A stretch of DNA of 64,000 bases from Okamejei kenojei (lineage: Eukaryota): contig CM069160.1 in the NCBI GenBank assembly GCA_035221665.1, positions 7,006,001-7,070,000 on the forward strand, read 5' to 3'. The notes under the pieces were generated by a model, which saw nothing but the letters and a program-made list of their open reading frames with translations, had not been told where the DNA came from and did not search any database. The position numbers and the translations under genes were made by a program. The first letter of the stretch is position 1. The number at the start of each line of letters is the position of its first letter. Shown piece after piece: positions 1 through 47,440 of this stretch.

Positions 1-99
1 ATGCGATCTGGAGGTCATCCAACATTGCCACCATACTGTACTCAGGCAGCTCACTCAATCCATGGTTCAACAGGTAGTAAAATGCAAGATGGTGAAAAT
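1..99 (-). CDS. MHC class I-like heavy chain, alpha1-domain exon (5' part; continues beyond the window edge)
   Basis: The minus strand has acceptor ttgtttatgcattgcAG (AG at 101-100), then phase-1 (D)FHHLAFYYLLNHGLSELPEYSMVAMLDDLQIA. This matches the class I alpha1 start pattern H-x-L-x-Y/F-Y...G...LPE[FY]..V..[LV]DD.Q. It is not in the ORF track. Confidence 0.8.
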
Positions 100-319
100 C
101 TGCAATGCATAAACAAACATAAGTATGATTGTGTCATCACTGTAAAGTGCTCAAAGAAGTTGCTAAAACTGCTAACAATACAAGAACTTTGTATAAGTGG
201 GTGACAAAGACCCGCAAATGCAAGTGCTGGAGGAACTCAGTGGGTCAGGCAGCATCTGTACGGGGGGGGGGGGGGGGGGCGGAGATGATCGGATGACATT
301 GTGGGTCAGGAGCCGTTTA

Positions 320-625
320 TTTAGGTTTTAGATAGAGATACAGCATGGAAACAGGCCCTTCGGCCCACTGAGTCCACACTGACCAGCAACCCCCACACTC
401 TAACACTATCCTACACACACAAGGGACAATTTACATTATACACTAAGGTAATTAACCTACAAACCTGTACTTCTTTGGAATGTGGGAAGAATTGAAGATC
501 TCGGGAAAAACCCACACGGTCAGGTAGAGAATGCACAAACACCGTACAGACAGGACCCGTAATCAGGATCCAACCTGGACATTGGTGCTGTAAGGGCGGT
601 AAGGCAGCAACTCTACCCCTGCATC
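320..625 (-). mobile_element. HE1-type V-SINE (tRNA head, V core, CR1-derived tail)
   Basis: Reverse complement of the cccacattccaaaga core and the gggcctgtttcc...ctgtatctcta tail; homologous to 8741-9060. Confidence 0.8.
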
Positions 626-1831
626 TCTGAGCCATCTTCAAGAGTAGGCAAGATGGGCTCTGATACCTATTCCACCAATGATGGTCGAGGCATTGAATGA
701 TCCGATTGGATTGATTCCCATCTTCCAAGATCTATTATTGTCTATCATGTAGATATGGTCTACTAGTTACAATATTCCAAAATATGAAGAATATTTTATT
801 TTATGAAGAACATGGACAATGTCACAGAGACTTTATAGAATCATAGGGAGGTAAAGTCAAAGAGTCATACAGCAGGGAATCAGGGTCTACGGCTCAACTT
901 GCCCACACCGACCAACATGCCCCATCTACACTGCCTGTATTTCATCAGGACTTAAGTGCCTAGGAGAATAAATAGGCCATTCAGCCCATCGGCCATTCAA
1001 TCATGGCTGCTCTATCTATCGCTCTCAACCACATTGTCCCGCCTTCGCCCCATAACCCTTGACACCCGCACTGATCATGAATCTGTCAATCTCGACCTGA
1101 AAATATCCATTGACGCGGGCTCCACAATTCTCTGAGAAGGCCCATATCATTTAAAACCTATCTATCCATGTACCTGATTAAATGTTTCTTAAATGTTGCG
1201 ATACTACCTGCCTGAACTACCTTCCCCGGCAGTCCATTCAGTACACCAACCATCCTTTGTGTAACAAAGCTACGCCTCAGGTTCGTATTATATCTTTCCC
1301 ACCTCATTTTAAACTTATGGCCTCTGGGTACAGCATATAAAAAGGCCCTTTAGCCCAGCAAATCCGTGGTAACCATCAAACACCTATTTATACTTGTGGT
1401 ACGCTAACCCATTTAATACTTTCCATTCTCCCATTAGTACCTCCCCTCCATAAATTATAATATATACATATACATATCTAATATAGCCCGCCATAATGAT
1501 TGGGACAAAGACCCATCATTTATTTATTTGCCTCTGTACTCCACAATTTGAGATATGTAATAGAAAAAAAAAATCACATGCGGTCAAAGTGCATATTGTC
1601 AGATTTTATTAAAGGGTATTTCTTGCACATTTTGGTTTCACCATGTAGAAATTACAGCTGTGTTTATACATAGTCCCCCCATTTCGGGGCACCATAATGT
1701 TTGGGACACATGGCTTCACAGGTATATATAATTGCTCTGGGGTATTTAAATGCCTCCTTAATGCAGGTATAAGAGAGCTCAGCACCTAGTCTTTCCATCA
1801 CCTTTGGAAACTTGTATTGCTGTTTATCAAC

Positions 1832-3458
1832 ATGAGGATCAAAGTTGTGCCAATTAAAGTCAAATAAGCTATTATGAGTCTGAGAAACACGAATAAAACT
1901 GTTCAAGACATCAGTCAAACCTTAGGCTTACCAAAATCAACCGATTGGAACATCATTAAGAAGAAAGAGAGCACTGGTGCTCTCTGGTTTTACAGGGCTC
2001 TGGTGAGACCACATCTGGAGTATTGTGTACAGTTTTGGTCTCCTAATTTGAGGAAGGACCTCCTTGTAATTGAGGCAGTGCAGCGTAGCTTCACGAGATT
2101 GATCCCTGGGATGGCGGGTCTGTCATATGAGGAACGATTGAAAAGACTAGGCTTGTATTCACTGGAAATTAGAAGGATGAGGGGGGATCTTATAGAAACA
2201 TATAGAATTATAAAATGACTGGGCAAGCTAGATGCAGGAAACATGTTCCCAATGTTGGGCGAGTCCAGAACCCGGAGCCACAGTCTTAGAATAAAGGGGA
2301 TGCCATTTCAGACTGAGGTGAGAAAAAACGTTTTCACCCAGAGAGTTGTGAATTCATGGTATTCCCTGCCACAGAGGGCAGTAAAGGCCAAGTCACTGGA
2401 TGGATTTAAGAGAGAGTTAGATAGAGCTCTAGGGGCTAGTGGAGTCAAGGGATATGGGGAGAAGGCAGGCACGGGTTAATGATAGGAGACGATCAGCCAT
2501 GATCACAATGAATGGCGGTGCTGGATCGATGGGCCGAATAACCTCCTACTGCACCTATTTTCTATGTTTCTATGTTTCTATGGTGAGCTAACTAATCGCA
2601 AATGGACTGGCATGCCAAGGAACACCTTCGCAGCTGATGACAGAATAATTCTCTCTTTAATAAAGAAAAATCCCCAAACACCTGTCCGACAGATCAGAAA
2701 CACTCTTCGGGAGTCAAGCGTGGATTTGTCAATGACCACTGTCCGCAGAAGACATCATGAACATAAATACAGACGCTACACTGCAAAATGCAAACTACAT
2801 TTTAGCCGCAAAAACAGGATGGCCGGGTTACAGTTTGCCAAGAACTACTTTAAAGAGCAACCACAGTTCTGGAAAAAGGTCTTATGGACAGATAAACATA
2901 TCATAGTGATGACAAGAGCAAAGTATTGAGGAGATAAGGAACTGCCCAAGATCCAAAGCACACAACCTCATCAGTGAAACACGGTGGTGGGGTGTTGTGG
3001 CCTGGGCATGTATGGCTGCTGAAGGTACTGGGTAACTTAGCTTTGTTGATCATTCAGCTACTGATGGTTGTAGCATAATGAATTCTGAAGTGTATAGACA
3101 CATCCTATCTGCTCAAGTTCAAATAAATGCCTCAAAACTCATTGGCCGGCGGTTCATACTACAACAAGACAATGCTCCCAAACATATTGCTAAAGCAACA
3201 AAGGAGCTTTTCAAAGCTAAAAAAATGTCCATTTTGAGTGGCCAAGTCAATCACCCCGATCTGAACCAAACTGAGCATGCCTTTTATATGATGAAGCGAA
3301 AACTGACGGGGACTAGCCCCCAAATCAAGCATAAGCTAAAGATGGCTGCAATACAGGCCTGGCAGAGCATCACCAGAGACCCCCAGCAACTGGTGACGTC
3401 CATGAATCATCGACTTCAAGCAGTCATTGCATGCAAAGGATATGCAACAAAATACTAA
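1832..3458 (+). pseudogene. Tc1 transposase pseudogene
   Basis: ATG at 1832 with an early in-frame TAA; HTH region; FWKKVLWTD; KHGGG; QQDNAPKH...PDLNQTEH with 34 residues between D and E. Frameshifted and split by a CR1 insertion. Confidence 0.9.
1980..2580 (+). mobile_element. 5'-truncated CR1 LINE (family A) inserted in the Tc1 transposase
   Basis: [18 protein letters not shown]...RGDLIETY; (TTTCTATG)n tail; TGGTG duplicated at 1975-1979 and 2581-2585. Removing it restores KKESTGELTNRK. Confidence 0.92.
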
Positions 3459-4079
3459 GAATGAGTACTTTCATTTACATGACATTGCTGTGTCCCAAAC
3501 ATTATGGTGCCCTAAAATGGGGGGGGGGGGACTATGTATAAACACTGCTGTAATTTCTACATGGTGAAACCAACATGAAAAATAATGGCCTTTTAAAAAT
3601 CTGACAATGTGCACTTTAACCACATTTGAGTTTTTATATTACAACTATCACATTCTGCAGTACAGGGGCAAATAAATAAATGATGGGTCTTTGTCCGAAA
3701 CATTATGGAGGGCACTGTATGTTCGATCAATTCACAATGGCCAATTTACCTCTCTTTGGGATGTGGGGAGAAACAGGTATAACCAGAGGAAGCACGCATG
3801 GTTTCAGGGAAATAATAAAAATGCCACACAGGTTGTAGTCGAGATCAGGATTGAGTCCATGTCCTCATAGGTAGCATCTCTATGGGCTGCAACACTGACA
3901 CGCCCATCTGGTAAGAAATGTTTGCATGGAATGGGACAATTCTGCATTATGAGGACACTGGGATTCTGTAAATTGAGGCAGTAACTGTAAAGGAGATCTT
4001 ACTGGTGAGTCCCGATTATCTGGGGGGGGGGTCAATATATGCCTTGGTCTGTGAGGCGCCTATAATAAACAGGGTCTAA

Positions 4080-4635
4080 ACGGAAACTCAACACAGCATA
4101 CTGGAGTAACTCAGTAGGTCAGGCAGCATCTCCGGAGAGAAGGAAAGGGTGACGATTCGGGTCGAGACCCTTCTTCAGACTGAGAATCAGGAGACAGCGA
4201 ACCAAGTGATACGAAAAGGTACATAAAACAAATTAATGAAAGATATGCACCCCCGTCTCCGTCTGAAGAAGTGCCTTGACCTGAAACGCCATAAATTACT
4301 TTTCTCCAGCGTGCTGCCTGACTTGCTGTTACTCCAGTTTTTTGTGTCTATCTTCGGTGTAAACCAGCATCTGCATCACCAGTCTGAAGAAGCGTCTCGA
4401 CACAAAACGTCACTTATTTCGTCTCTCCAGAGATGCTGCCTATCCCGCTGAGTTACTCCAGCTTTTTGTGTCTATCTTCGGTTTAAATTAGCATCTGGAG
4501 TTCCCTCTTTCAAATCTAAACTGATGTCTAAACTGAAACATCACCTATCCATGTTCTCCAGACGTACTGCCTGACCTGCTGAATTACTCCAACATTTTAT
4601 GTGTATTAACCAGCATCTGCAGTTTCTTGTTTCCA
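4080..4635. repeat. Cluster of inverted and tandem Penelope-type terminal repeats with hammerhead-like motifs
   Basis: Copies of agtctgaagaagggtctcgacccgaaacgtcaccc...gatgctgcctg.cccgctgagttactccagc in both orientations. Confidence 0.75.
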
Positions 4636-5479
4636 CATGAACGAGCAATATTTGTTCTGTGATAAAGATTACAGGCAACACACCAGACAGTGTCAAAGTT
4701 CATGTGTTTAAGTGAGGTGAGAAGGGGCCCCAAAGGGAGAGTTAGAAGTGTCTGTTTCAGTGTTACCAGGAGAAACATAAGAAGGCTAAGCGTGGAGTAC
4801 AGTAATGATAAAATCCATGCGACTTCCCAGAACACTCCACAGCCAAGGATCTTTATTTTATATGTTATTATTTCAACACGGTAATCACCATTATATTTAC
4901 TTTCATCTGATAGCAATGGGATAAAAATTTTAGGATGAGTAGGTTTGTAATCTCCAAGCCTTCACGATTGTCAGAATAGTTAGAAAGGAAGCATTGTGTG
5001 GGAAGAAATTGCTCATCAGATCCACATTAAATCATTCCCCCCTCACTTTAAACCTATGTCCTCTGGATCTCGATTCTGTAATATGTTGAATATGTTGTCT
5101 ACTTGAAAATTTCCAGATTGAGATGGATAGAACATGATGTCAAGTTAAACTAAACTCTTCATGTTTGTACATGATTCATATCCCTCAATTCCCCGCATAT
5201 CCACGTGCCTATCCCCAAGCACCTTAAATCTCATTATCCTCTTCTGGGGAAGTGGTGGTGGGATAATGGATCGGGTCTGCAGGAGAGGAAGCATGCAACA
5301 AACAGAACAAGATGGCAACAACATTAACACAACATTGATTGGTCATTTAATGCAGGCTGATTTTTACCACCATGTGGGTGTCTTACACCAGGTGAGGAAA
5401 TCTTGGAGCGGTGGGACACCTACTAATGCAGAAGTCACTTCTTTATTGAAAGAGCACATCACCGATTTACCTGAATTCT

Positions 5480-5870
5480 ATCTGAGGCATTAGTGCAAGG
5501 AAAGATTGGACAAACATGGATTGTTTTCCCTCGTATACTGGAGGTTATAGGGAGACCTGATGAAAGTGCATAAAATGGTGAGAGGCACAGACGGAGTGGG
5601 CAGTCAGAACATGTTTCACAGGGTGGAAATTTTGACGACCTGAGAACATCACTTTAAGGTTGGAGAAGCAATATTCAAAGGAGATGAACGGGGAAGTTGT
5701 TTTATGTGGACGGTGGTGGACACCTGTAATGCACTGCCAGTGGTGGCAGATATAACAGTTACATTTCAGAGGCTTTTAGGTACATAGATAGGCAGGGAAT
5801 GGCTAGATATGGATCACATACAGGTAGAGGAGATTAGTTTATTTTGTTCGGCAAAGATATTGTGGGCCGA
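5480..5870 (+). mobile_element. Decayed CR1 3' fragment
   Basis: Degenerate RGDL.EV.K coding segment followed by a CR1 3' UTR. Confidence 0.65.
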
Positions 5871-6267
5871 AGTTAGACACAAAATATTAGAGTAACTCAT
5901 CGCGCCAGGCAGCATCTTTGGAGAAAAGGGATAGGTGATGTTTCGGGTCAAGGCTTTTCTTCAGACTGAAGAACCTAAGGACCTGCTCTTGTGCTGTATT
6001 GTCCTATATTCTATGTTCATTATTTACCCGTATTCATTTCTTCTCTTCAATGGAATGCCAAGGTAACCATAGTATATATAACTTCTCACAGGAGCCTTCA
6101 CAACTCAGGAATGACCGTTACCCAAAATTATTAATACATACAATTCAGTCATTCAATTAATACATCCAAGACAATGAACCCAGGGCAAACACAGGGACTG
6201 TGCAACAGAAAATAGAATTCGTTTTGTTGTTTCCTCAAAGTTCACAAGTAGAAGCTGCATTGCTTAC

Positions 6268-6319
6268 CAGAGAAGACTGTGGCCACACCGTAAGTGTTCA
6301 GTAAGGTAAAAAGAAACAT
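6268..6319 (-). CDS. Leader (signal peptide) exon of the MHC class I-like gene
   Basis: ATG at 6319 gives MFLFTLLNTYGVATVFS plus one G, followed by a strong donor G|GTAAGC. The 52-nt phase-1 exon joins in frame to the alpha1 exon (G+AT = Asp). Confidence 0.65.
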
Positions 6320-6339: not shown

Positions 6340-6490
6340 ACTATTTAACCAACAGAGTAAATGCAGTAACAGTAACTTAATCTCTTGTAATTTTTTAACG
6401 GGACTTTGGCGTGAAGCTAATTATTGGTCCATGTGTACACACACCTGATAACCAGATCCAATGGGAATGAGACTACTTGTTCTGGTCACT
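6340..6490 (-). promoter_or_regulatory. Putative proximal promoter of the class I-like gene
   Basis: Repeat-free DNA upstream of the leader ATG. It carries a kappaB-like GGGACTTTGG (6399-6408), CCAAT/ATTGG boxes (~6423-6427, ~6458-6462) and an AT-rich TATA-like element (~6342-6349). These are short motif matches only. Confidence 0.3.
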
Positions 6491-12432: not shown

Positions 12433-15370
12433 ACCATATAACCATATAACAATTACAGCACGGAAACAGGCCCTCTCGGCCCTTCCAGTCCGTGCCGACC
12501 ATTTGTTTTCCCCTAGTCCCATCTACCTGCACTCAGACCATACCCCTCCATTCCCTTCACGTCCATATACCTATCCACTTTACTCTTAAATGTTAAAATC
12601 GATCCTGCCTCCACCACTTCTGCTGGAAGCTCATTCCACACAGCCACCACCCTCTGAGTAAAGAAGTTCCCCCTCACGTTACCCCGAAACCTCTGTCCCT
12701 TAATTCTCATGTCATGCCCTCTTGTTTGAATCTTCCCTACCCACAATGGGGAAAAAACGTATCCACGTCAACTCTGTCTATCCCTTTCATCATTTTAAAG
12801 ACCTCAATCAAGTCCCCCCTTAACCTTCTGCGCTCCAAAAAATAAAGACCTAACTTGTTCAACCTTTCTCTGTAACATAGTTGCTGGAACCCTGGCAACA
12901 TTCTAGTAAATCTCCTCTGTACTCTCTCTATTTTGTTGACATCCTTCCTATAACTAGGCGAACAAAATTGTACACCATACTCCAGAATTGGTCTTACCAA
13001 TGCCTTGTACAATTTAACATTACTTCCCTACTCCTATATTCAATGCTCTGATTTATAAAGGCCAGCACACCAAAGGCTTTCTTTACCACCCTATCTACAT
13101 GCGATTCCACCTTCAGGGAACTATGCCACAGTTATACCTAGATCCCTCTGTTTCCACAGCATTCCTCAATTCCCTACCATTTACCATGTACGTCCTATTT
13201 TGATTTGTCCTGCCAAAATGTAGCACTTCACACTTATCAGCATTAAACTCCATCTGCCATCTTTCAGCCCACTTTTCCAAATGGCCCAAATCTCTCTGTA
13301 GACTTTGAAAATCTACTTCATTATCCACAACACCACCTATCTTAGTATCATCTGCATACTTACTTATCCAATTTTCCACCCCATCATCCAGATCATTGAT
13401 GTACATGACAAACAACAGTGGACCCAACACAGATCCCTGAGGCACCCCACTGGTCACCGGCTTCCAACCTGACAAAGAGCCATCCACCATTACTCTCTGA
13501 CATCTCCCATTCAGCCACTGTTGAATCCATCTTGCCACTGTGCCATTAACACCCAAAGATTGAACCTTCTTAACCAACCATGGGGAACCTTGTCAAAGGC
13601 CTTACTGAAATGGAGTACTCTCCAGCGGCTCTCCAGCAGGTGCTCCAGCGGCGGCCCGGCTTCAGAGCTCCGGCGGCTCCAGCGATCCCGTGGTCGATCC
13701 TGACTGGGAGCTGTGGTGGTGTTCCGGCGTTCCGGCGGCGGCGGCGGTGGCGGCCTGGCTTCGGAGGCTCGGCCGCGGGCCTGGTGGACGATGACATCGA
13801 AGGCCTGGATTGCCTCAGTACAGAGGGGGAACAAGTAGGGGAAAATGACAAAGACCTTAAGACTTTTGCCTTCCACCACAGTGAGGAGGTGCTTGGTGAA
13901 CTCACTGTGGTGGATGTTAAATTATGTGTTTATTGTGTGTTTTGTTTTAATTTATTGCATGTTATGACTGCAAGGTAACAAATTTCGTTCAGACCGAAAG
14001 GTCTGAATGACAATAAAGGAATCTGAATCTGAATCTGAATCTGAATCTGAAATCCATATAGAAAACATCCACTGCTTTACCCTCATCAATTTCCCTAGTT
14101 ACCGCTTCAAAAAATTCAAGAAGGTTTGTCAAACATGACCTTCCAGGCACAAATCCATGTTGACTGTTCCTGATCAGACCCTGTTTATCCAGATGCTTAT
14201 ATATATTATCTCCAAGTATCCTTTCCATTAATTTGCCCACCACTAACGTGAAACTAATAGGTCTATAATTGCTAGGTTTATTCTTTGAACCCTTCTTAAA
14301 CAATGGAACAGCATGCGCAGTACGCCAATCCTCCGGCACTATTCCCGTTTCTAATGACATTTGAAATATTTCTGTCATAGCTCCTGCTATTTCTACACTA
14401 ACTTCCCTCAATGTCCTAGGGAATATCCTGTCAGGACCTGGAGACTTATCCACTTTTATATTTTTCAAAAGTGTCAGTACTTCCTCCTCTTTGAATCTCA
14501 TAGTTTCCATAGCTACTCTACTTTTTCCCCTTAACTCACCGAGTTCAATATCCTTCTCCTTGGTGAATACCGAAGAAAATAAATTGTTCAATATCTCCCC
14601 CATCTCTTTTGGCTCTGCAGATATCTGTCCATTCTGATTCTCTAATGGTCCAATTTTATCCCTCGTTATCCTTTTGCTATTCATATAGCTGTAGAAACCC
14701 TTTGGGTTTACTTTCACCTTTCTTGCCAACGCAACCTCATATCTTCTTTTAGCCTTCCTAATTTCTTTCTTAAGATTCTTTTTACATTCTTTACACTCCT
14801 CTAGCACCTCATTTACTCCATGCCTCGTATAATTATTGTAGATATCTCTCTTTTTTGGAAACAAGTGTCCAATTTCCCTTGAAAACCATGACTCTTTCCA
14901 ATGTTTACTATTTCCTTTCAACCTAACAGGGACATAAAGATTCTGTACTCTTACAATTTCCCCTTTAAATGTCCTCCATGTCTCTTCTACATCCTTCCCA
15001 TGAAACAAAGTGTCCCAATTCACTCCTTTAAAATCCTTACGTATTCCCGCAAAGTTAGCCTTTCTCCAATCAAAAATCTCCACCCTAGGTCCAGTTCTCA
15101 CTCTCTCCATAATTATATTGAAACTAATGGTATGGTGATCACTGGTTCCGAAGTGCTCACGAACGCATACCTCCGTCGCCTGACCTGCCTCATTTCCTAA
15201 CAGGAGGTCCAGCACTGCCCCTTCTCTGGTCGGTACCTCTATGTACTGCTGCAAACAACTATCCTGCACACATTTTACAATCTCCAAACCATCCAGCCCA
15301 TTTACAGAATGTGTTTCCCTGTCTATTTTTGGAAAATTGAAATCTCCCACAATCACTACCTTGTGCTTAC
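12433..15370 (-). mobile_element. CR1 LINE family B (part of APE endonuclease plus RT), interrupted at 13612-14046
   Basis: [42 protein letters not shown]; (ATATGGTT)-type tail. Confidence 0.93.
13612..14046 (+). mobile_element. 5'-truncated copy of the GC-rich VNTR non-autonomous retroposon
   Basis: About 98% identical by eye to ~63290-63686; (CTGAAT)n tail; CTGAAAT duplicated at 13605-13611 and 14047-14053; splits the CR1 motif YMDF|SKAFD. Confidence 0.9.
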
Positions 15371-15371
15371 T

Positions 15372-16500
15372 ACTAAAAATAGATTATGAAAGAAAACTGG
15401 CAGGGAACATAAAAACTGACTGCATATGTTTTTATAGATATGTGAGGAGAAAAAGATTAGTTAAAATATATGTAGGTCCCTTGCAGTCAGAAACTTGTGA
15501 ATTGATCATGGGGAACAAGGACATGGCAGACCAATTGAATAACTACATTGTTTCTGTCTTCACTAAAGAAGACATAAATAATCTTCCGGAAATAGCAGGG
15601 GACCGGGGGTCAAATGGGATGGAGGAACTGAATGAAATTCAGGTTAGCCGAGAAGTGGTGTTAGTTAAATTGAATGGACTAAAGGCCGTTAAATCCCCAG
15701 GGCCAGATAGGCTGCATCCCAGAGTACTTTAGAAAGCAGTCCCTGAAACGGTGGATGCATTAGTGATAATTTTTCAAAACTCTTTAGATTCTGGAGTCGT
15801 TCCTGAGGATTGGAGTGTAGCTAATGTAACCCCACTTTTTAAAAAGGGAGGGAGAGAGAAAACGGGGAATTACAGACCAGTTAGTCTAACATCAGTGGTG
15901 TGGAAAATGCTAGTCAGTTATTATAGATGGGATAGCAGCACATTTGGAAAGTGGTGAAATCATTGGACAAAGACAGCATGGATTTATGAAAGGTAAATCA
16001 TGTCTAACGAATCTTATATAATTTTTCGAGGATGTAACTAGTAGAGTGAATAAGGGAGAACCAGTGGATGTGTTATATCTGGACTTTCAGAAGGCTTTCG
16101 ACAAGGTCCCACATGAGAGATTAGTATGCAAACTTAAAGCACACGGTATTGGGGGTTCAGTATTGATGTGCATAGACAACTGGCCGGCAGACAGGAAGCA
16201 ATGAGTAGGAGTAAACTGGTCCTTTTCAGAATGGCAGGCAGTGAATAGTGGTGTACCGCAAGGCTCAGTGTTGGGACCCCAGCTGTTTACAATATATATT
16301 AATGATCTGGATGAGGGAATTGAAAGCAACATCTCCACGCTTGCGCATGACACGAAGCTGGGGGCAGTGTTAGCTGTGTGGAGGATACTATGAGTGTGCA
16401 AGGTAACTTGGATAGGCTGGGTGAGTGGGCAAATGCATGGCAGATGCAGTATAATGTGGATAAATGTGAGGTTATCCACTTTGGTGGCAAAAACAGGAAG
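15372..16500 (+). mobile_element. CR1 family A internal fragment (tether plus RT)
   Basis: [38 protein letters not shown]; homologous to 47441 onward. Confidence 0.9.
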
Positions 16501-17412: not shown

Positions 17413-17794
17413 GGATCACCTATGTCACTGCACGTGGTAGTGTCGGACCCTCCAAAGACTGAGGAAGTGGAATTGGTGGAGGAAAAATCAGGAAAGGTCC
17501 GGGAACAATATTCCAAAAAGCCGCCGGAAAAGGGGGGGTGGATTGTGGCACGCGGATCGGGTAGTACGCGATTGAGAGCGTTGCCGTGGTATGCTTGAAC
17601 ACCCAGAGGCTAACTAAAGGAGAGAGAGTGTGCTTTTACCCCATTGCAAGGCAACAACTGCCTGATACGCTTCAGGCCCACGTGCCTGAATGTTCCGGCA
17701 CCAGGAACCAGTGGACCAGTGGAACATCCACGACCCAAGTACCTTGGACCCAAGGACATCGGGTCCACCATCACTTTTGTATTGGGCGGTGTGA

Positions 17795-19005
17795 TTGTCG
17801 GGAAGGGCATGGGTGAATTATTGTTGGTTTACAGTTGCTTGCCTGCTTGTGGTGTTCGGAGGGAATGTGGACACCTCGGCCTACATTATGAATCTCCTGT
17901 TCCAAACTCGTTTCCCACCCTCAGCTATAAATTCGCACAACGGCTCAATGTATCAGCGTGCTGGGTGTGTACCCGCATCCAGTGCCACAGTAGGGGCATC
18001 CCATTGTGGGCAGTTCCCTTAAATCATTGCGAACAATTGTCAGCGTGGTCTTTTTGTAGCGAGACCACGAGTGGTGCGGCTTAGAACGGCCACCAAACCT
18101 CCCTTGATCGCCAGTGTCACTGCTTTGACGGATGGTACATTCCGCCATTCAACCACACTCGAGCTTCCGCCTAACAGGTGCCGACGAGTCCACTAATAGT
18201 CCCTGCCATTGTAACTTTGAGGGGTCGGGCCCTTCCCCTGGGTAACAGTACCTGTACGACATATACCATAGCGTCTCCCCCATACACCAGTAATGGAACC
18301 TACTGGGTGTGTGGCCTGTGAGCCTACTCCTGGCTTCCGGGAATGCCCGGGGTGCACTTCGTGGCATGAGAGAGACTAATACCCTGGACGGGATGCTGTT
18401 ACCTGACATATGTGGTACCCCACCTGAGACACTTGCCATGCTTACCCTCAACCCCCGGCAAGACCATGTGTATCGGGCTACTACGGAGGCCGAGTGCTTC
18501 TGGACTATTGAATTTTCCTCATATGATACTGCGAAGCTGGCACGGGTAATGATTATCATGGCTTCTGCCATGAAAGAAATAGCCAATGAGACGGCAGACT
18601 TGGGGTAAAATTCTCACCACAGAATTATCAGCGGAAGTATTCGCACCGCAGCCATACACAACCCCATGGCCCTAGATTTCACCCAGGCTGAGAAAGGGGG
18701 CACTTGCGCTTTGACCTTGCGGGAGCGCTGTACTTATTTTCCCTGTGATTCCGAGAACATCACCAACCTCGCTGACCACAGGAAGCCGTGGAGAAGATTG
18801 GAAATGGTCGGAGAACAGTACCACGACTACAACCTCCCGGGAACATGATGGCCTTTCGGGATGTTAGGAGGCTGGTGGACAACAGTGGTGCATTGGGGAC
18901 TGACCATTGGGACGATCTTGTTGGCCATAATATGACTGCGTTGAATGTATGCATTGGCATCACGACCGCGTGGCCTTTACTGCAGCCTGTGGGCCGGATG
19001 TGACA
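17795..19005 (+). pseudogene. Gamma-type retroviral env remnant
   Basis: Signal-like WFTVACLLVVFGG; NSF...LNVSACWVC (CXXC); fusion/heptad region ATTEAECFW...MASAMKEIANETA; degenerate immunosuppressive domain and CX6CC; many stops and frameshifts. Confidence 0.85.
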
Positions 19006-21845: not shown

Positions 21846-24295
21846 ATGGACAATGGACGCAGAGTAGGCCATTCGGACCTTCGAGCCAGCACCGCCATTC
21901 AATGTGATAATGGCCGATCATACACGATCAGTACCCCGTTAAGCCTTCTCCCCATATCCCCTGACTCCGCTATCTTTAAGAGCTCAATCTAACACTCTCT
22001 GGAAATAATCCAGAGAACCGCCCTCTGAGGCACAAAATTCCACACACTCACAACTCTCTGTGTGAAAACGTTTTTCCTCATCTTCGTTCTGAATGGCTTG
22101 CCATTTATTTTTAAACTATAGTCCCTCGTTCTGGACTCGCCCAACATTGGGAACATGTTTCCTGTGTCTAGCGTGTCCAAACCCTTAATTATCTTATATG
22201 TTTCAATAAGATTCCCTCTCATCCTTCTAAATTCCAGAGTATACAAGCCCCACCACCCCGGGAATTAACCTGGTGAACCTATGCTGCACTCCCTCCATAA
22301 CTGGAGCCAGCCAGTTCTCTATCCACATCAACACTGAACCCCCGATACCGTGTGCTTTAAGTTTGAATGCTAATCTCTTATGTGGGACCTTGTCGAAAGC
22401 CTTGTTAAAATCCAGATATAAGACATCCACAGGGTTTCCCTTATCCACTTTACTAGTTACATCCTCGAAAAATTCTATAAGATTCGTCAGACATGATTTA
22501 CCTTTTATAAATTCATGCTGACTTTGTCCAATGATTTCATCACTTTCCAAATGTGCTGCTATCCCATCTTTAATAACTGACTCTAGCATTTTCCCCACTA
22601 CCGATGTTAGACTAACTGGTCTGTAATTCCCCGTTTTCTCTCTCCCTTCCTTTTTAAAAAGTGGGGTTACATTAGCTACCCTCCAATCCTCAGGAACTAC
22701 TCCAGAATCTAAAGAATTTTGAAAAATTATCACTAATCATCCACTGTTTCTGGAGCTACTTCCTTAAGTACCCTGGAATGCAGCCTATCTGGCCCTGGGG
22801 ATTTATCGGCCTTTAATCCATTCAATTTATCTAACACCACTTCCCGGCTAACCTGGATTTCACTCATTTCCTCCATCTCATTTGACCCCCGGTCCCCTGC
22901 TATTTCCGGCAGATTATTTTTGTCTTCCTTAGTGAAGACAGAACCAAAGTAGTTAATCATTGGTCTGGCATGTCCTTGTTCCCCATGGTCAATTCACCAG
23001 TTTCTGATTGCAAGGGACCTACATTTGTTTAAACTAACCTTTTTCTCTTCACATATCCATAAAATCTTTTGCAGTCCGTTTTTATGTTCCTTGCCAGTTT
23101 TCTTTCATAATCTATTTTCCCTTTCCTAATTAAGCTCTTTGTCCATCTTCTGCTGGACTCTGAAATTCTCCCAGTCCTCTGGTAGGCTGCTTTTTCTGTC
23201 TAATTTGTATGCTTCATCTTTAGTTTTGATACTATCCCTGAATTCCGTCGTTATCCACGGATGCACTACCTTCCCTGATTTATTATTTTGCCAAACTGGG
23301 ATGAACAATTGTTACAGTTCATCAATGCAGTCTTTAAATGCCTTCCATTGCATATCCACCGTCAACCCTTTCAGAATCACTTGCTAGTCTATCTTGGCCA
23401 ATTCACGTCTCATACCCTCAAAGTTACCTTTCTTTAAGTTCAGAACGCTTGTTTCTGAATTAACAATGTCACTCTCCATCCTAATGAAGAACTCAACCAT
23501 ATTATGGTCAATCTTGCCCAAGGTGCCACGCACAACAAGACTGCTAACTAACCCTTCCTCATTACTCAGTACCTAGTCTAGAATAGCCTGTTCTCTCGTT
23601 GGTTCCTCTACATGTTGGTTTAAAAAACTATCCCGCATACATTTCAAGAAATCCTCTTCCTTAGCACCCCTGCCAATTTGATTCACCCAATCTATATGTA
23701 GATTGAAGTCGCCCATTATAAATGTTTTAACTTTGTTGCACGCATTTCTAATTTCATGTTTGATGCCATCCCCAACTCCACTACTACTGTTAGATGGCCT
23801 GTGCACAACTCCCACTAGCGTTTTCTGCCCCGTATTGTTTCGCAGTTCTACCCATATCGATTGCACATCCTCCAAGCTAATGTCCTTCATTTCTATTGCG
23901 TTAATCTCCTCCCTAACCAGCAACGCTACTCGACCTCCTTTTCCTTTCTGTCTATCCCTCCTGAATATTGAATATCCCTGGATGTTCATCTCCCAGCCTT
24001 GGTCACCCTGGAGCCATGTCTCCGTGATCCCAACTATGTCACATTCATTAATAACTATCAGCACATTCAACTCATCCACCTTATGCCAAATACTCCTTGC
24101 ATTGATACACAAAGCCTTTGGGCTTGTTTTTACAACACTCTTACCCCTTATAGAATTATGTTGAAAAGTGGCCCTTCTTGATTTTTGCCCTGGATTTTTC
24201 TGCCTGCCACATTTACTTTTCACCTTGCTACCTATTGCTTCTACCCTCATTTTTCATCCCTCTGTCTCTCTGCGCATGCTCCCATCCCCCTGCTC
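21846..24295 (-). mobile_element. CR1 family A ORF2 with an internal deletion of the RT core
   Basis: NARSI, GITETW, GDFN (endonuclease); WIENWLA fused to MEGVQHRF near 22300; 3' UTR at 21846-21990. Confidence 0.9.
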
Positions 24296-26510
24296 AATAT
24301 TATGGTCACTACCTCGTAATGGCTCCTTAACCTTAAGTTCCTTTATCAAATCCGGTTGATTACGTAACACAAAATCCAGAATTGCCTTCTCCTTGGTAGC
24401 CTCCAATACAAGCTGCTCTATGAATACATCACGGAGGTACTCCACAAACTCCCTTTCTTGGGGTCCAGTACCAACCTGAGTTTCCCAGTACACGTGCATT
24501 ATGAAATTCCCCATAACAACCACAGCATTACCTTTACTACATGCCAATTTTAACTTGATTCAAGTTGTACCCTATATCCCGGCTGCTGTCTGGGGGCTTG
24601 TAGATAAGTCCTATTCGGATATTTTACTCTTGCAATTCCTTAGTTCTATCCATACTGACTCCACATCTCCTGTTTCAATGTCACCCCTCGCAAGGGACTG
24701 AATTCCATTCCTCACCAACAGAGCTACCCCATCTCCTCTGCCCAGCTGTCTGTCTTTTCGATAGGAAGTATAACCTTGAAAGTTCAGTTCCCAGCCCTGG
24801 TCCTCTTGCAGCCATGTCTCTGTAATTCCCACAGCACCATCCTTGCTAATTTATAACTGAGCCACAAGCTCATCCACTTTATTTCTTATACTTCGCGCAT
24901 TCATATACAACACTTTGTCCCCGGCATTCACGTCCCCTCTCGCACCGCTCGCAATTGGCCCTGACCTTACTCTCTTATCCCTCCTCGAACTTTCCTTGCC
25001 ATTAATTCAAGAGTCATTTGTAACTTTTCCTGTAATCACTTCTCCTTCAAATCCATGCTCCCAATTTGTCCACCCCCACCCCCGCCCCCCCCCCCCCCCC
25101 CCCCCCCCCCCACCCACCCACTATTTAGTTTAAACCCACACGTGTAGCACTAGCAAACCTTCCTAACAGAATGTGGGTCCCCCTCCAGTTAAGTGGTAAC
25201 CCATCATTCTTGTAGAGGTCACCCCTACCACAGAAGAGATCCCAGTGGTCTATAAATCTAAATCCTTGCTCCCTGCACCAGTCCCTCAGCCACACATGCA
25301 GATTCCCTGTCCTCATTAGCACGAGGTTCTGGAAGCAATCCAGAGATAACCAACCTAAAGTCCTGCTTTTCAGTCTTCTTCCTAACTCTCTGAACTCGCG
25401 TTGCAGAACCTCCTTCCTCTTCTTCCCGATGTCCTTTGTGCCTACGTGCAGAACTACTGCTGGCTGGTCACTTTCTCTCTCGAGGATGCTCTGTTTGGCT
25501 CGTGACGTCTTGAACCCTGGCACCAGGTTGGCACCAGACCACGCTTGCGTCTCGTCTGCCCCACAGCATCTCCTGTCCGCTACTCGGACAATGGAATGAC
25601 CCACCACTATGGCTCTGCTCGACGTCGGTCTCGCCGGTCGAGTCCCATTTCTAGGATTGGAGCCACCGACGTGTTCGCCGCTCGGACTGGAAGCGTCGTC
25701 TCCCCCGACAGTTCTCAAGAGGGCGTACATGTTTTCATTAGGCACAGCCAGCTGGGTATCCTGCACTCCACGGTTGCCACCCATTCTCTCAGTCGCACAC
25801 CTTAGTTCTTCTCGTATTCTTGGCGTGACCACCTCAGTATAGGTCCTGTCCAGGAAACGCTAGTTTTTCCGTATGGCCCTAAGGTCATCCAGCTGCTTCT
25901 CCAGTGGCCAAACATGGTCCTTTATGCGCTGAACCTGGACGCATTTGCCACAGTTGTAGCAGCCAGAGGCTCCATCCGTGTCTTGGGCTCCCACATCCTG
26001 CAAGCATCATACTGTCTCATCTGTCCTGTCATATGTTCACCGCGGCTCTTCCTCTCCAGCTTTTTGCGTAGTCTCCTCTCCTCAGCCTCCTCGCCTAAGA
26101 CTCCCACATCCCTCACAAGGCACTTCCCTCACTGCTAATCCCTCACTGCCGCTCCCCTGGAACAGCCTTGCTTATATTGGCTGATACGTTGCCTAATTTA
26201 CCAATTTACTAATCAAATTAAACTGTTTTTCACATCTGACTCACCTCCAACTCACCTCACCTTTCCCACGGGTTTCAGCTAATAAGCTCTTCTCCCTGCT
26301 TCTCTTTGATTCCTTCTTCTCCGAGATTTACGTAAGCACTGGGCTAACATTGGCTTTTTGGCGCTCTTTTTAAACTGTTTTCCCCACTGACTCATCTCTG
26401 ACAGCTTTCCCACGGGTTTCAGCCAATAATTGATTCTTCCTGCTTCTCTTTGCCAGCTGTTTCTCCGAGATTCACGTAACCACGGAGCCGTGGACATTTT
26501 GCTATGATCG
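24296..26510 (-). mobile_element. CR1 family C 5' part: endonuclease, ORF1 and 5' UTR
   Basis: GITETW...GSDHN; ORF1 with a Cys-motif region and an SGNH esterase-like domain. Confidence 0.85.
25125..26040 (-). pseudogene. CR1 ORF1 (SGNH/GDSL esterase-like) remnant
   Basis: AIVVGHSIVR (GDS), VVLHVGTKD (GTND), DGLPLN (DGLHL); DACRMWE zinc-finger-like start. Confidence 0.8.
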
Positions 26511-30096: not shown

Positions 30097-32728
30097 TTAA
30101 AAGTGCTTTAATGAATTAGACAAGAACCCGCATGGACACCTAACCAGGTTTTTTAATTCTTCTCTGAATTTCGTCTGTGATACGGCGTAAATAAACGTGT
30201 TGGTGCAAGCACTCAGACACCTCAGCATATATCCGGACTGTTCTGCCACGGTAAATGGGTCGTCGTAATCTGTTGCTAAAAGCTTCACGTCTATAAATCG
30301 TACATTGATGAAACACACGAATATTACCATCCACAGTAGGATGAAGCTGCCGGATACTGCCAGCAATAGAATGATGGACTTCCTTCTATTCTCCACCTCT
30401 TGATCTGCGCCGCTCTCGTCCATCTTGTTCGCTCGGAGACCGCTCCTCACTATGTTGGCGCGTATAATGTGTCTGATTGTCAGGGCGTTGAGGAGCATGA
30501 TCAGTAGGAATGGTGTAAATGGGGTTAAAATAGTTTCGAACGACCAAAATGCTACCAGTAACGGTGAGGTGTAGAAGTCTGGGGTTACGCCACAGGACCA
30601 AGCCACGTTGTCAATGATTTCCCGTGGTGCGTAGACAAAATACATTGGGATATTTTCAATAACACTCAGGGAACACACCACTGCTATCACCAAAGTCGCG
30701 GTTTTACCTGTGCAATATCTTCCACGTAACATTTGACAACAAATCGCAACAAATCGATCGAAGGTGAATGTCACCGTTAGCCAGACAGAGCAATGAATGG
30801 ACATAAAAAGCAGGGTCAAGTTGACGCTACAAACTGGAGTTAAGTTCAGAAATGAATTGGGGAAATAGCCATCTTTAATCTCGTAGAGAATTACCTCGAA
30901 GATCAGAACCATTAAATCACCCACGGCCATGGATACCAGGTAAAGGGTGATACATTTGGAGAGACCACACTTTCCCCGGGGGAGAATTACGATTGCCACC
31001 ACGTTAACTGTAGAAAAAAACAAGTTAAAAAGACTTTACTACCCGTTATTGGTCTTGCAGGAAACTTAGTTTAGAGATACAGCTTGGAAACGGGACGTTC
31101 GGCCCATCGAGTCGTCTCCGACCAACGATCACAGTAGTTCTATCCGACACACTAGAGCCAATTTACAGAAGCCTATTAACCTACAGACCTGCACGTGTTT
31201 GGGTTCCGAGAGGAAACATTAACGATAACACACCATTGATCAAGCATGTGAACCAACACAATACCAGATCAAAGGGACGCTACAGATTTTTGGCTGTTGG
31301 TCTATTTCCAGTGAGTCAATGGGGACAGATTGGCGAAATTGGACATTCATGGGGTTCTTGAAAGCTGCGGTGGAACGTGGAAGGTTAAAGTCATTCTATT
31401 TTCTTACTGCCAAATATCTCCCGCCGAACCACTAAAAAAAGTATCCGGCTAACTACGACTAATTCACGGGGATTGTCGCTCGTCCACTGAATTGGTTCTG
31501 CAGCAGATGCCCTGACTTACTAAGTGTTCCGCCCGTTCACTTATTGGAAGAGCTATGTGAACAGACCTGGGACAGACACAAAATGCTGGAGCAACTCAGC
31601 GGGACAGGCAGCATCCCTGGATAGAATGAATCGGTGATGCCTCGGGTAAGGCCCTTCCTCGGATTGAGCAAGATGCAGAGCCTGAGGAATAGGCTCGATC
31701 CGAAGTGTCATCCATTCCTTCTATCCAGGGATGCTGCCTTTGCACCTGTTGATCCAGCATTTTGTCTCTTTCACTGGTGGAAGGCGGCATCTGCTGTTCC
31801 TTCCTGAAGAAACCCGGGACCCTAATTATTCTAGGAGACACTAGGATCGAAGTACGGGACTGCAAAGCGAAGTCCAACGTGCTGGATGGATTCAACAGGC
31901 AGGCATCTCATGCAGAGGGAAATTGAGATACGATGTTTCGGGTCTGGACATTTCTTCAGACTAATGATATTTTATCAGACTTTGTCCCTCTCATTCTAAA
32001 TCTGTGCCCTCTAATCGTTGTTTCCCACGATGAATGCAAGGCGGAATTTGGAACGAGCAATTGGAACATGTAATGAAGTTTCTATCTGATTTCCAACTTT
32101 GCCGCCTGTCGGTACCTCGCCTTGGAGACGCTGCGATACAGACACAGACTTCAGAGCGAGAAGCAATGAACACATTTGGGGATCCTGAAGTTGTAATGGG
32201 GGGTTTAAATTGTTAGTCGTACTGGTTTCTAGACTAAGGTAGAGCAGTTGGCAGAGATGCCGTCTCGCGGCTCCAGAAACCCGGGTTGAATCATGAACTC
32301 GGGTGCTCTCAGTGTGGAGGTTATTCCTTCTCCCTGTGACTATGGGTTTCCTTCCGGTTCTCCGGTTTCTTCCCACATTCCAAAGACCTGCGGGTTGGTA
32401 GGTAAATTGGCTTCTGTAAATTATCCCTGATATGTAGGACAGAGGTGACCGTTTGTCGGCGCGTACTCGGTGGGCCCGAGGGCCTATTTCCGCGCTGTAC
32501 CTCTAAAAGAAACACGATGTACGCTATATTTGCTGGTTCCATGTCGATTAGTATTTGGCTGCCAATACTAAATCAAACAGACAATTAAGAATACACTTCC
32601 ACTTAACAACACATAATTACACAACGAAAAGATTAACAGATGAGAATAAGCTGCTTACCAGGAACGCCGATGATGGCAAGGATCGGATAGCAAATGTTTT
32701 CTAGCTGAATTATTACCGGCTGTTTCAT
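30097..32728 (-). CDS. GPR139-like class A GPCR copy 1, intact, 326 aa; join(32728..32659, 31007..30097)
   Basis: Exon 1 MKQPVIIQLENICYPILAIIGVP with G|GTAAG; acceptor ttttctacAG; 981 nt total; seven TM segments with DRF and NTFIY. The phase-1 intron after G-x-P in TM1 matches GPR139. Confidence 0.93.
32237..32508 (+). mobile_element. V-SINE in the intron of GPCR copy 1
   Basis: Degenerate A/B boxes, cccacattccaaagac core, CR1-type tail. Confidence 0.8.
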
Positions 32729-37765: not shown

Positions 37766-40577
37766 TTAAAAGCACTTTATTACATTGGAAATCAACACGA
37801 ATGGGCCTTTAATCACGTTTTTAAAATCCTCCCTGAATTTTTTCTGTGACACCCCATAAATAAACGTGTTGGTGCAAGCACTCAAACACCTCAGCATATA
37901 TCCGGACTGTTCGACAATTGTAAATGGGTCGTTGTAATTTGTTGTTAAAAGTTGAACGTCTATGAAGTATACACTCATGAAACACACAAAATCTACCAAC
38001 CACAGAAGAACGAAGCTACCAGATATGGCCAGCAATAGAATGACTGACTTCCTTCGGTTCTCTACTTCTTGATCTGCGCCGCTCTCGTCCTTCGTTTTCC
38101 CTCGAAGTCCGCTGCGCACTCTGTTGGCGTGTATAATATGTCTGATTGATCAGGACGTTGAGGAGCATGGTCAACAATATGGGTACAAATGGGGTTAAAA
38201 TTGTTTCGACCAACCAAAATACTGCCCATACCGGTAAGGTGTAGAAATCTGAAGTTACACCACAGAACCAGGCTACGTTGTCAATTATTTCTCGAGGTAC
38301 GAACATAAAATATATTGGGATATTTTGAATAATACTTAAGATACACGTCACTGCTATCACCAAAGCCGCAGTTTTCTCAGTGCAATATTTTTTACTCGTA
38401 ACTTCTGATGACAAATAGTGATATATCGATCGAGGGTGAAAGTCACTGTTAGACCAGACAGAGCAATCAATGGCAAATTAAATTAAATAGCAAATTCACC
38501 CTACAAATGGGCGTTAGATTCAGGAATGAATACACAAAATAGCTATCTTTAATCTCGTAGAAAATTACCTCGATGATCAGAACCATTAAATCAGCTACGG
38601 CCATGGATACCAGATAACGTGTGATACATTTAGAGAGACCACACTTCCCCCGGGAGAGTATAATGATTGCCAGCAGGTTAGCTGCAGAAAAGACAAAATT
38701 AAAATGACCAACTTTCGTTTTTCCATGAGTAAGTTAATTTGGCATTTCTTCGAACGAAACAGTGGATTATTTGACTGTACCCTGTCTGAATTCCTCGTGT
38801 AGCCCAATAAAATGTTTAGAGATGCAATTCGCCATCTCGCACGGAACAGAATCCTGCGCCAATGACACGGCTGGATTGAAAGACTCATTGCGTCTTGAGC
38901 ACAGATTGTTTAAAAAGGGTTTGACGGGCAGTTCAATTCAACTTAGACCAGTTACATTCCATTCACTTTACCGGAAAGGTATGTGGACCTTATATATTAG
39001 CGGCTGGTTTGCTTATCACAATCCAGTGGCAGACCTTTGGCAGGCAGAAGGAAGCATCGGCTTTAAAACAAAGAGCGTTTTAAATGTTCAAATTGTATTG
39101 GATAGAGATGTAATTCGAATCAGGATGTGCTACATAGATATCTGCGGTAAGCTACGTGACCAGCCTTAAACATATCAGTTGCAGTTTGTTTTGGCGAAGC
39201 GCATCTGAATACAACTGTTGCGTCCAATATTAACCTTAAATTCCTACTGTGCATGGTTCGTAATGCGATGGGGTTTTAACTCCCTTTTCACCAATGAAAA
39301 CGAACAAAGTGGCACGTGCTTAATAGCTCTGGCGACCCAGGTTCAATACGGGCCACTGGCATGCTATGGTCTGCCTGGAGTTCCCCCAATGACCGCCTGG
39401 GCTAACCCTGGGCGATTCATTAATACAGCAAACAAACTGGAGTTTCTGCCCACACCGTCGTCGCGCAGCATCCTTTCGCACTTGTTCTATGTTACAGCAC
39501 ACTCGACTCAACTCCCTAGACACAAGAGACAATTTACAGAGCGGAGGTAACTTACAAACCCACAGGAGAGCTCCCGGTGTAACCCACGCTTCCGCTGAAA
39601 GAGGTGTACACCTCAAACAGACCGCTGTTGAGGGTCAGGGTCAAACCCGGGTATTTGCTGCTGTGAGATATTAGGTCCACCAGCTGCACTACTGTGCGGC
39701 GAGGTGCTCCGGATTTCCCTTTACGTGCGAAATTTTTTGAGTTTGGTAAATTATTTACCCCCCGCTAGTGGTCCCTGATGTAACATTTTCTGGCAAAGGT
39801 TGCGGGGAATTTGCAAATTCCGTGTCAAAATTAAAGCGGGTAAATCAAATTACGTTTTGGAGTGACATAGACTACATGGACGGAATAGCCACCATCTACA
39901 TAATAGGAGCAACGTTAGCCTTAGTGGCTGTCAGTTCCTTTCAATTAGCTGATGTAGAATAAATATAATCCTGGTTTTTGCCATTTCCAGTCAAAAGGCA
40001 GAAAGCATAATGTCAAAAGTCCACCAAACCACCATTGACTAATCCGCTGTACCGTCTTCTGACGTTCTGGGCTTCCGAGGGGTTCGTTTTCGCCAAACAA
40101 GCCAAAGACATGTGGGAGTGTAGTTTAATTGGGCTCTGTAGAATTGCCCCAAGAGTTGGAGGGATTCAATGAGAACGTGGGATAACATAGAACTCGTGTG
40201 AACGGGAGGGCAGTGTGGACTCCGTCGATGAAGAGGTACAGCACAGCAACATGCATTTCGGCTTACAATATATATACTGAACGTCAAGACAATTTAAACT
40301 AATTCCACATTTAGGAGTCGTCCACACCCTCCTTCCCCCGTCTTTCTAAATGCCATTGACTATATCGACAATAGATTGGAATGTGTAAATTGATTTTCGA
40401 TGTCACTAATTGGCATCAGAACATCAAGCAACAAGTAATCGCACACATGTGTTTTAACAGTAAAGGCTAGGCGGCGTAAATATCGGCAGAAATACCAGCA
40501 AGCTCACCAGGAACACCAATGATCGCAAGAATTGGATAGTAAATATTTTCGACCTGGATGAGTACCGGCAATTCCAT
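37766..40577 (-). pseudogene. GPR139-like copy 2, frameshifted as assembled; join(40577..40508, 38681..37766)
   Basis: Exon 1 MELPVLIQVENIYYPILAIIGVP; splice sites intact. Exon 2 is 916 nt versus 911, with insertions at ~38475 (+1), ~38453 (+1), ~38390 (+2) and ~38150 (+1). Confidence 0.85.
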
Positions 40578-46280: not shown

Positions 46281-47440
46281 CCTCTCTCTCTCCCTCCCAA
46301 CTATATTTAGCCGGGAAATATCTCAACAATTATGACTGGGACAGGGACAGTATATGTGTTATGCAATCTGTGTGTAAAGTGAGATCATGAGTTCAAATAC
46401 GCACATAGAAATCTAGAAAATGTGGGATCTCACTAAAGTTGCAAAACAGAAACTTAAACGCGGAAGCTTAATAGCCTGTCATAGTAACACTAGATCTATG
46501 TTATCCCACCGCCCACCACGGTGACGTAGCGGTAAAGCTACTGCCTTACAGGGCCAGCGAACCGGGTTCTATCCTTACCACATGTGCTTATCTTTACGGA
46601 GTTTGTACGCTCTCCCGTAACCTTATTGATTTAATGCTTTGCATTTGCGCAATGTGGGATATGACCAGTAAGTCTGTAGATGTCAAAAAATGATGGCATT
46701 GTTCACAGTGTGGAAGATAATTATTGGCTGGAATACGATATTTGATTAAAATGGCTGAGCAATGGTAGATGCAATTCAATCTAGCTAATTGTGAAGTTAT
46801 GTACTTTGGAAAGTTTAATAACCATAGGGCGTAATCAGTTCGTTTTTGTCCTGCGCATAATTATGGTAGTTCCATTACAGGGATCAGGGGCAGGGAATGA
46901 GGAAGCTGCTGGAGATTTTTGCCAGAATGCTGCCCGGATTAGTGGTTTTCAACTCTGAGGAGATGATTTATGATTTTTCTCTTTAGCCTGCATCTTGCAT
47001 CTCATTTTCACCTGGGACCCACTTGTCCTATTAATGACAGCACAGAACGGCAGACATACGAAGACATCTCAACGAGCTGTGGCGAGTTTTTCAAACGTCA
47101 GTTTATTCAAGATCTTAATAGTTTCTACTGCGAAAAACTCTGAATGAACCCAGAGTTCAATCACTCACAGCGCCGACAGGTTTTTTTACAACTGATGATA
47201 CATTGATTACATGTGGATCTTATTTGTTTTCATAATGCTTTAATGAACAACGTATCCTTGTTGTCTTCCTTCCTTGGACCCCCTCCCCACCCTCACCCAC
47301 CAATTATTTTTAACCTTCGGAGTTTTCCAGACCAATTCTGCATCCAACTTTCGACGTCTTAATCCCGTGGCATTCACCTTTGTGAACTGTAACTGTGGGA
47401 GCTGGCCAAAGGCATTCAATAAGTGTATGCCAATCACAAA

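Follow-up and report, generated by a model that had tools for sequence, protein, structure and literature searches.

The available part of PMC12562908 lists five class I lineages of the shark major histocompatibility complex (MHC), UBA, UEA, UDA, UFA and UGA, and reports, citing a personal communication, that lipids are bound by UFA and UGA in the manner of CD1d. The available supplement of PMC10751288, a study that terms UFA CD1-like, labels its 26 class I queries as UAA, UAA-2, UBA, UCA, UDA, UFA, UGA, UHA or outgroups. It is still debated whether the presentation of lipids goes back as far as that of peptides, and shark UFA and UGA constitute the current evidence. Here a 64,000-nucleotide (nt) stretch of the skate Okamejei kenojei (termed here the window; assembly GCA_035221665.1, 2.76 Gb; contig CM069160.1, abbreviated C30) is analyzed, whose first position is C30:7006001 and whose left edge cuts through a class I gene on the minus strand. 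This gene very probably represents a distinct and old lineage that, to judge from sequence comparison, is the sister of UGA in its alpha1 and alpha2 domains.

There is little doubt that the gene is real and intact and that it encodes a non-classical MHC class I heavy chain. An earlier reading of the window (the original prediction) had proposed a 52-nt leader exon joined to a phase-compatible alpha1 exon starting at position 99, and had suggested extending leftward to find the remaining exons. Both exons hold up, and the alpha2, alpha3 and transmembrane (TM) exons are all present to the left, giving five open exons, in phase 1 throughout, with GT-AG introns of 6168, 871, 1210 and 1454 nt (Table 1). 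The leader runs from an ATG at position 6319 to a donor GTAAGC after 6268; the phase-1 join reads MFLFTLLNTYGVATVFS-D-FHHLAFYY..., the split codon being Asp and the remainder of the exon starting as FHHLAFYYLLNHGLSELPEYSMVAMLDDLQIA. The completed alpha1 exon matches Pfam MHC_I at E 1.9e-5 (24.8 bits, below the 28.3 cut-off), alpha2 matches the same family at E 1.7e-15 and alpha3 matches C1-set at E 1.3e-15; in the alignment both the C101-C164 pair and the alpha3 cysteines are present. The leader call is backed by homologous leaders in the sawshark and sevengill-shark orthologues, where MLLVTLLNVYCVP...SS stands immediately before the same alpha1 start, and by a second copy of the gene (copy B, below) that keeps leader and donor. 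About 110-145 nt upstream of the ATG (window about 6410-6465, minus strand) lie ATTGG and CCAAT words, possibly a Y box.

The original prediction had also called for RNA reads spanning the 6268/99 junction. The junction itself was not seen: among the rows shown for four sequencing runs there are no exon junctions, the matches being mostly repeat noise and run X1 behaving as DNA, and no O. kenojei transcript of the gene was seen among the runs examined. From X4, a run of a related species guessed to be RNA, one contig matches alpha3 precisely up to its donor, beyond which come 38 letters unlike the intron, and another, whose 21 preceding letters do not fit, matches from the exact alpha1 acceptor onward. 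Neither counts as bridging a junction; the two contigs suggest splicing at the predicted alpha1 acceptor and alpha3 donor.

Four copies of the gene occur on C30: the window gene (copy A); copy B (4.11-4.13 Mb), which is entirely open; copy C (3.85 Mb), open apart from a frameshift in the T run of its leader; and copy D (4.37-4.38 Mb), which has several breaks and for which a leader match was looked for and none found. The damage to C and D, together with the lack of a transcript from this species, would fit a window copy that is itself a recent duplicate, silent or decaying. That is very improbable, however, in view of its five open exons with GT-AG ends, its alpha1 differences from the other copies, which are mostly silent (silent/replacement 3/1 for A-B and 4/0 for A-C, with 3/1 for B-C), and its similarity to the nearest named protein, that of the little skate, to which it is 92, 93 and 82% identical in alpha1, alpha2 and alpha3, respectively.

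Against the PDB, both alpha1 and the whole chain match best to 9CH4 (36-39% identity; E 3e-60 versus 5e-47 for the next), an entry released on 2026-03-18 under the title 'shark nonclassical MHC class I, UGA', whose alpha1 is what the available supplement of PMC10751288 calls Gcirratum_UGA; the second alpha1 match, 8GM8, corresponds by sequence to Gcirratum_UFA in the same source. The window gene is nonetheless not UGA, because the same genome has separate, true UGA genes (C30:4.75 and 4.85 Mb), which fall into a separate clade. To the one UGA gene compared, the window gene is 42, 39 and 34% identical in alpha1, alpha2 and alpha3, and it is these UGA genes, not the window gene, that the little-skate UGA of that supplement matches. 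The UGA region itself (C30:4.65-4.97 Mb) is an inverted duplication with two intact, divergently pointing copies of identical alpha2 protein and two broken flanking copies.

A whole-chain homologue search yields a close group that, skates aside, shares 53-72% identity with the window gene, after which the values drop to 40% or less. With cluster members included, orthologues occur in 14 named sharks and rays: Leucoraja erinacea, Pristis pectinata, Mobula birostris, Hypanus sabinus, Pristiophorus japonicus, Heptranchias perlo, Scyliorhinus torazame, Scyliorhinus canicula, Stegostoma tigrinum, Hemiscyllium ocellatum, Mustelus asterias, Cetorhinus maximus, Chiloscyllium plagiosum and Chiloscyllium punctatum. 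Accessions of the lineage include XP_051899694, XP_067834248 and XP_055486430. Seven genomes (six of these species and O. kenojei) have both a gene of this lineage and UGA. The searches returned no orthologue for nurse shark, white shark, whale shark or chimaera, and no member outside elasmobranchs was found among 144 further cluster representatives, whose best alpha1 matches are UGA (42-44%) followed by others at 37% or less (best 150 of 2813 matches).

The original prediction had considered the lineage unassignable from the 33 alpha1 residues then visible; this no longer holds, since the trees place the gene beside UGA in a lineage that sharks and rays both retain. Under LG+C20, an alpha1-alpha2 tree built from 31 rows (a chosen subset of the fetched proteins, seven of them from this lineage) supports the lineage and UGA at 100/99 each and their pairing at 95/84; rays are nested as a clade within each, and UFA joins the pair weakly (85/76). 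A 48-row JTT tree with 14 lineage rows supports the pair at 100 and the lineage at 73, with Heptranchias branching first. Because the lineage and UGA each span sharks and rays, the duplication that separated them predates the shark-ray split, roughly 270-300 million years ago. The trees place the window gene outside the UDA, UBA-like and multicopy lineages, and a comparison by eye with the available supplement of PMC10751288, which carries no UEA label, finds it unlike UCA and UHA. A Callorhinchus family (P0034, P0043, P0049 and P0256) that resembles the sequence labelled 'Cmilii_UGA' in the same material falls outside elasmobranch UGA in the alpha1-alpha2 trees and is open in alpha3; its label may need review.

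A serious competing explanation, which we consider somewhat short of an even chance, is that the lineage has been described before, as a second subgroup or copy of UGA. The sister relationship itself is consistent with this, as are a similar leader, the common motifs NHG, GFHG and MNxYFKxLLExDC, and the consecutive accessions of the Heptranchias genes on a contig of equal length; moreover, the available part of PMC12562908 terms UFA and UGA 'single- or low-copy', and in the available supplement of PMC10751288 a sawfish gene bearing the orthologue's automatic name is marked MHC-Ib. Set against this are an identity of only about 40% in all three domains, the joint occurrence of both lineages in seven genomes, differing glycan sites and tails, and, in that supplement, the fact that by eye 0 of the 26 labelled class I queries match and the little-skate UGA is the other paralogue. 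In Heptranchias perlo, eleven near-identical proteins of the lineage lie on several contigs, as either a local expansion or unmerged haplotypes.

A full-text literature search, whose coverage did not extend to literature on the 2026 UGA structure, found no description of or name for a sister lineage of UGA, and none of the papers it listed names 9CH4 or 8GM8; we thus lean slightly toward the view that the lineage is unnamed in print. Its genes are already annotated as automatic NCBI models, not assigned to a lineage, and the present analysis corrects that annotation: NCBI lists them as MR1-like, and the available supplement of PMC10751288 marks them simply as MHC-Ib. Among the little-skate models, P0002 reads 12 residues past the alpha2 donor, P0108 fuses UGA to a seven-transmembrane (7TM) receptor and P0016 has a spurious N-terminal half.

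That this is a divergent non-classical molecule, as the original prediction held, is borne out by the peptide anchors and by the loss of the Asn86 glycan site. At the anchor positions, which, like the 37 groove positions used below, we take to be those of HLA-A2 work, the gene reads F7, H59, Q84, L143, R146, W147, L159 and Y171 where the reference has Y7, Y59, R84, T143, K146, W147, Y159 and Y171, so that two of eight are kept. The original argument had rested on F7 and a hydrophobic first strand (AFYYLL); position 7 is indeed F, but this is weak evidence by itself because 2 of 9 UGA rows also have F7, and the case rests instead on the six lost anchors together with the Asn86 site. The further proposal of a possible non-peptide ligand gains support from the full groove, whose composition resembles UFA and CD1b and may accommodate such a ligand: 26 of the 37 positions are hydrophobic and 2 are charged, and their mean hydropathy is 1.25 (0.99-1.45 over all 14 lineage rows), compared with 1.23 for UFA, 1.33 for CD1b, 0.20-0.88 for UGA (nine rows), 0.28 and 0.38 for UAA-like, 0.08 and 0.61 for UBA-like, -0.32 to 0.85 for multicopy rows and -0.62 for UDA.

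Between rays and sharks (45 pairs) the lineage retains 66% identity in alpha1, 74% in alpha2, 74% in the groove and 56% in alpha3, and UGA shows the same pattern more weakly (64, 67, 72 and 59%); such cross-species conservation of the groove points away from high polymorphism of the classical type, this species being covered by one assembly. The Asn86 sequon occurs in 0 of 14 lineage rows versus 9 of 9 UGA rows, Cys99 on the groove floor in 14 of 14 (UGA has Phe), and all 16 lineage proteins carry an N-S/T-T sequon in their alpha2 loop. A tail YxxΦ motif occurs neither in these 16 nor in the window gene, as against 7 clear instances among 12 UGA models, with one more in an aberrant tail and four lacking it; the UGA of this same genome has YQNI. 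These counts leave out the partial or aberrant models P0004, P0016 and P0099 and ten near-identical Heptranchias members.

On balance we favor, with some reserve, the reading that the groove holds a hydrophobic, lipid-like non-peptide ligand; the groove proxy and the statement on UFA and UGA in the available part of PMC12562908 both support it. The protein would then stand at the cell surface holding a lipid or similarly greasy ligand. The steps of such a mechanism can be ordered by strength. The firmest is that it would pair with beta2-microglobulin, since Q96, G120 and D122, which we take to be contacts of that subunit, are kept. Next, it would bypass the TAP peptide-loading complex, in which the Asn86 glycan is bound by calreticulin, because that glycan site is lost. 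Third comes the conserved, hydrophobic ligand itself; fourth, this ligand would be loaded along the secretory route or at the surface and not in late endosomes, because the tail lacks the tyrosine motif. Least secure is that the complex would be read by a receptor that is itself conserved and most probably carried by innate-like T cells.

Instead of a lipid, the groove might hold a small metabolite or reactive molecule, perhaps tethered to Cys99, as in an MR1-like presenter. NCBI names the orthologues MR1-like, MR1 is the best alpha2 match in the PDB, Cys99 is invariant, and alpha1 and alpha2 are more conserved than alpha3, just as in MR1 the ligand domains are the better conserved. This reading nonetheless seems a poor prospect: the position of K43, the Schiff-base lysine of MR1, aligns to Ala, the groove has few polar residues, and UGA is a far nearer match than MR1 (about 32% identity) in alpha1 and over the whole chain. 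Orthology to MR1 was rejected because the K43 equivalent is missing.

The protein might, alternatively, have a class I fold and present no antigen, serving either as a closed-groove innate ligand or as a carrier or receptor like HFE, FcRn, ZAG or EPCR. Strong conservation, the missing sorting motif and Asn86 site, and large hydrophobic side chains that possibly fill the groove are all compatible with such a role. We regard it as improbable: the gene neighbors UGA on the MHC contig, lipid binding is reported for its closest relative, and a copy number that ranges from four here up to the eleven Heptranchias proteins fits an immune gene.

Several observations weigh against the lipid-binding, UGA-sister reading. 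Hydropathy is a crude proxy: the UGA range overlaps the UAA-like and multicopy rows, and because UGA, a reported lipid binder, scores so low, the measure does not cleanly split lipid from peptide binders. Bulky side chains could fill the groove and not line a pocket. Groove numbering was mapped to HLA-A2 by hand, with an alignment that is less sure for the CD1b and UFA rows, and tails were taken from automatic gene models. Differences between copies A, B and C in alpha2, alpha3 and TM, few in number, are mostly replacements. In an alpha3 tree both lineages are whole and the sister group is open (approximately unbiased (AU) test, p 0.41). An AlphaFold model of the little-skate orthologue (predicted local distance difference test, 78.7), made from a protein with a 12-residue annotation insert, has a class I fold with Z 23-24 to class I chains; UGA ranks first in the fold search but is barely separated (Z 24.4 versus 23.4 for MR1 and classical molecules), and that 8GM8 and CD1 are not among the matches listed excludes nothing. 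We also considered whether the gene is chimeric or is an orthologue of the chimaera 'UGA', which a JTT+G4 alpha3 tree joined to it at 94; the idea was dropped because a mixture model did not settle that node and a grouping of the lineage with UGA was not rejected by the AU test.

Elsewhere on C30 are UFA (8.39 Mb), UDA (8.46 Mb) and UAA-like genes (1.55, 6.55 and 7.72 Mb), labels that come from matching translations by eye to the available supplement of PMC10751288. Open UFA-like alpha1, alpha2 and alpha3 exons (8.388-8.398 Mb) and UDA-like exons (8.456-8.466 Mb) lie about 65 kb apart. The 7TM receptor frames upstream of the gene in the window are probably the GPR139-like cluster that flanks sawfish MHC-Ib genes, a label that is itself inferred: the available part of PMC10751288 places such a cluster upstream of a sawfish MHC-Ib gene that shares its automatic name with the orthologue P0003, the link being by name and chromosome and not by accession. 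The local order fits the lineage placement. Further elements of the window are given in Table 1, and an Rfam scan of the window found nothing.

Table 1. Coordinates of the gene and of other features of the locus (window positions, except where C30 is given).
Feature	Position	Strand	Details
Exon 1, signal peptide	6268..6319	-	52 nt = 17 codons + 1 nt, phase 1; reads MFLFTLLNTYGVATVFS plus one base
Intron 1	100..6267	-	6168 nt, GT-AG, repeat-rich
Exon 2 (alpha1), part within window	1..99	-	99 nt; starts at 99 after ...TTGCAG
Alpha1 end	C30:7005839	-	full exon 261 nt, donor GTAAGT
Exon 3, alpha2	C30:7004967-7004692	-	276 nt; second in-frame AG 6 nt upstream
Exon 4, alpha3	C30:7003481-7003209	-	273 nt
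Exon 5, TM, tail and stop	C30:7001754-7001525	-	tail and TM in one exon
7TM receptor frames, intronless, rhodopsin-type	30097-31035, 52433-53398, 38016-38477	-	Pfam 7tm_1; two apparently whole, one partial
Tc1-type transposase, broken, inside intron 1	about 2486-3458	+	
Long interspersed nuclear element (LINE)-type retroelement frame	47423-48814	+	open for 463 residues; RVT_1
LINE-type retroelement frames	13989-15383, 23573-25859	-	
Frame with CWVC motif recalling a retroviral envelope remnant	17614-18084	+	no Pfam match
Two copies of one element	62600-63620, 13500-13980		first with a long GC-rich tandem array open in several frames

Compared with classical UAA (6LUP), the window gene has the same exon plan, C101-C164 pair, C1-set alpha3 and contig, but differs in its few remaining anchors, its missing Asn86 site and a groove that is conserved and not diverse. 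With UFA (8GM8) it shares groove hydropathy, contig and the weak grouping; the two are, however, only 24-31% identical, UFA is a gene of its own in this genome, and W147, Y171 and the usual DG motif of alpha2, all kept by the window gene, are no longer present in UFA. UGA (9CH4, nurse shark) is the closest system: beyond the sister relationship, both have Y155, F156, L159, L160 and D163 on the alpha2 helix, both have lost Y159 and T143, and both have a similar leader, low copy number and a place in the same chromosome region. Unlike UGA, the lineage has H59, Q84, a more hydrophobic alpha1 helix, the alpha2-loop sequon and Cys99, has neither the Asn86 sequon nor the tail YxxΦ, and encodes its tail together with TM in one exon. 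A lineage standing beside UGA with another tail, glycan site and groove offers a matched pair for comparing ligand class and trafficking. With CD1 it shares the class I fold, the loss of peptide anchors and a hydrophobic groove, at 15-30% identity; it retains W147, W167, Y171 and class I-like helices, and no sign of CD1 orthology was seen with one CD1b row, used as outgroup on a long branch. A tentative and rather unlikely extension is that this is a third, unrecognized CD1-like lineage of sharks and rays, in which an ancient duplication produced two lipid presenters with divided labor: UGA, with its tyrosine sorting motif, would sample endosomes, whereas the lineage described here, with no such motif or Asn86 glycan, a greasier groove and Cys99 on its floor, would present an unvarying class of lipids taken from the secretory route or the cell surface. 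If so, it would parallel the mammalian split between CD1b/d and CD1a, whose tail motif is missing, and would have arisen independently of it.

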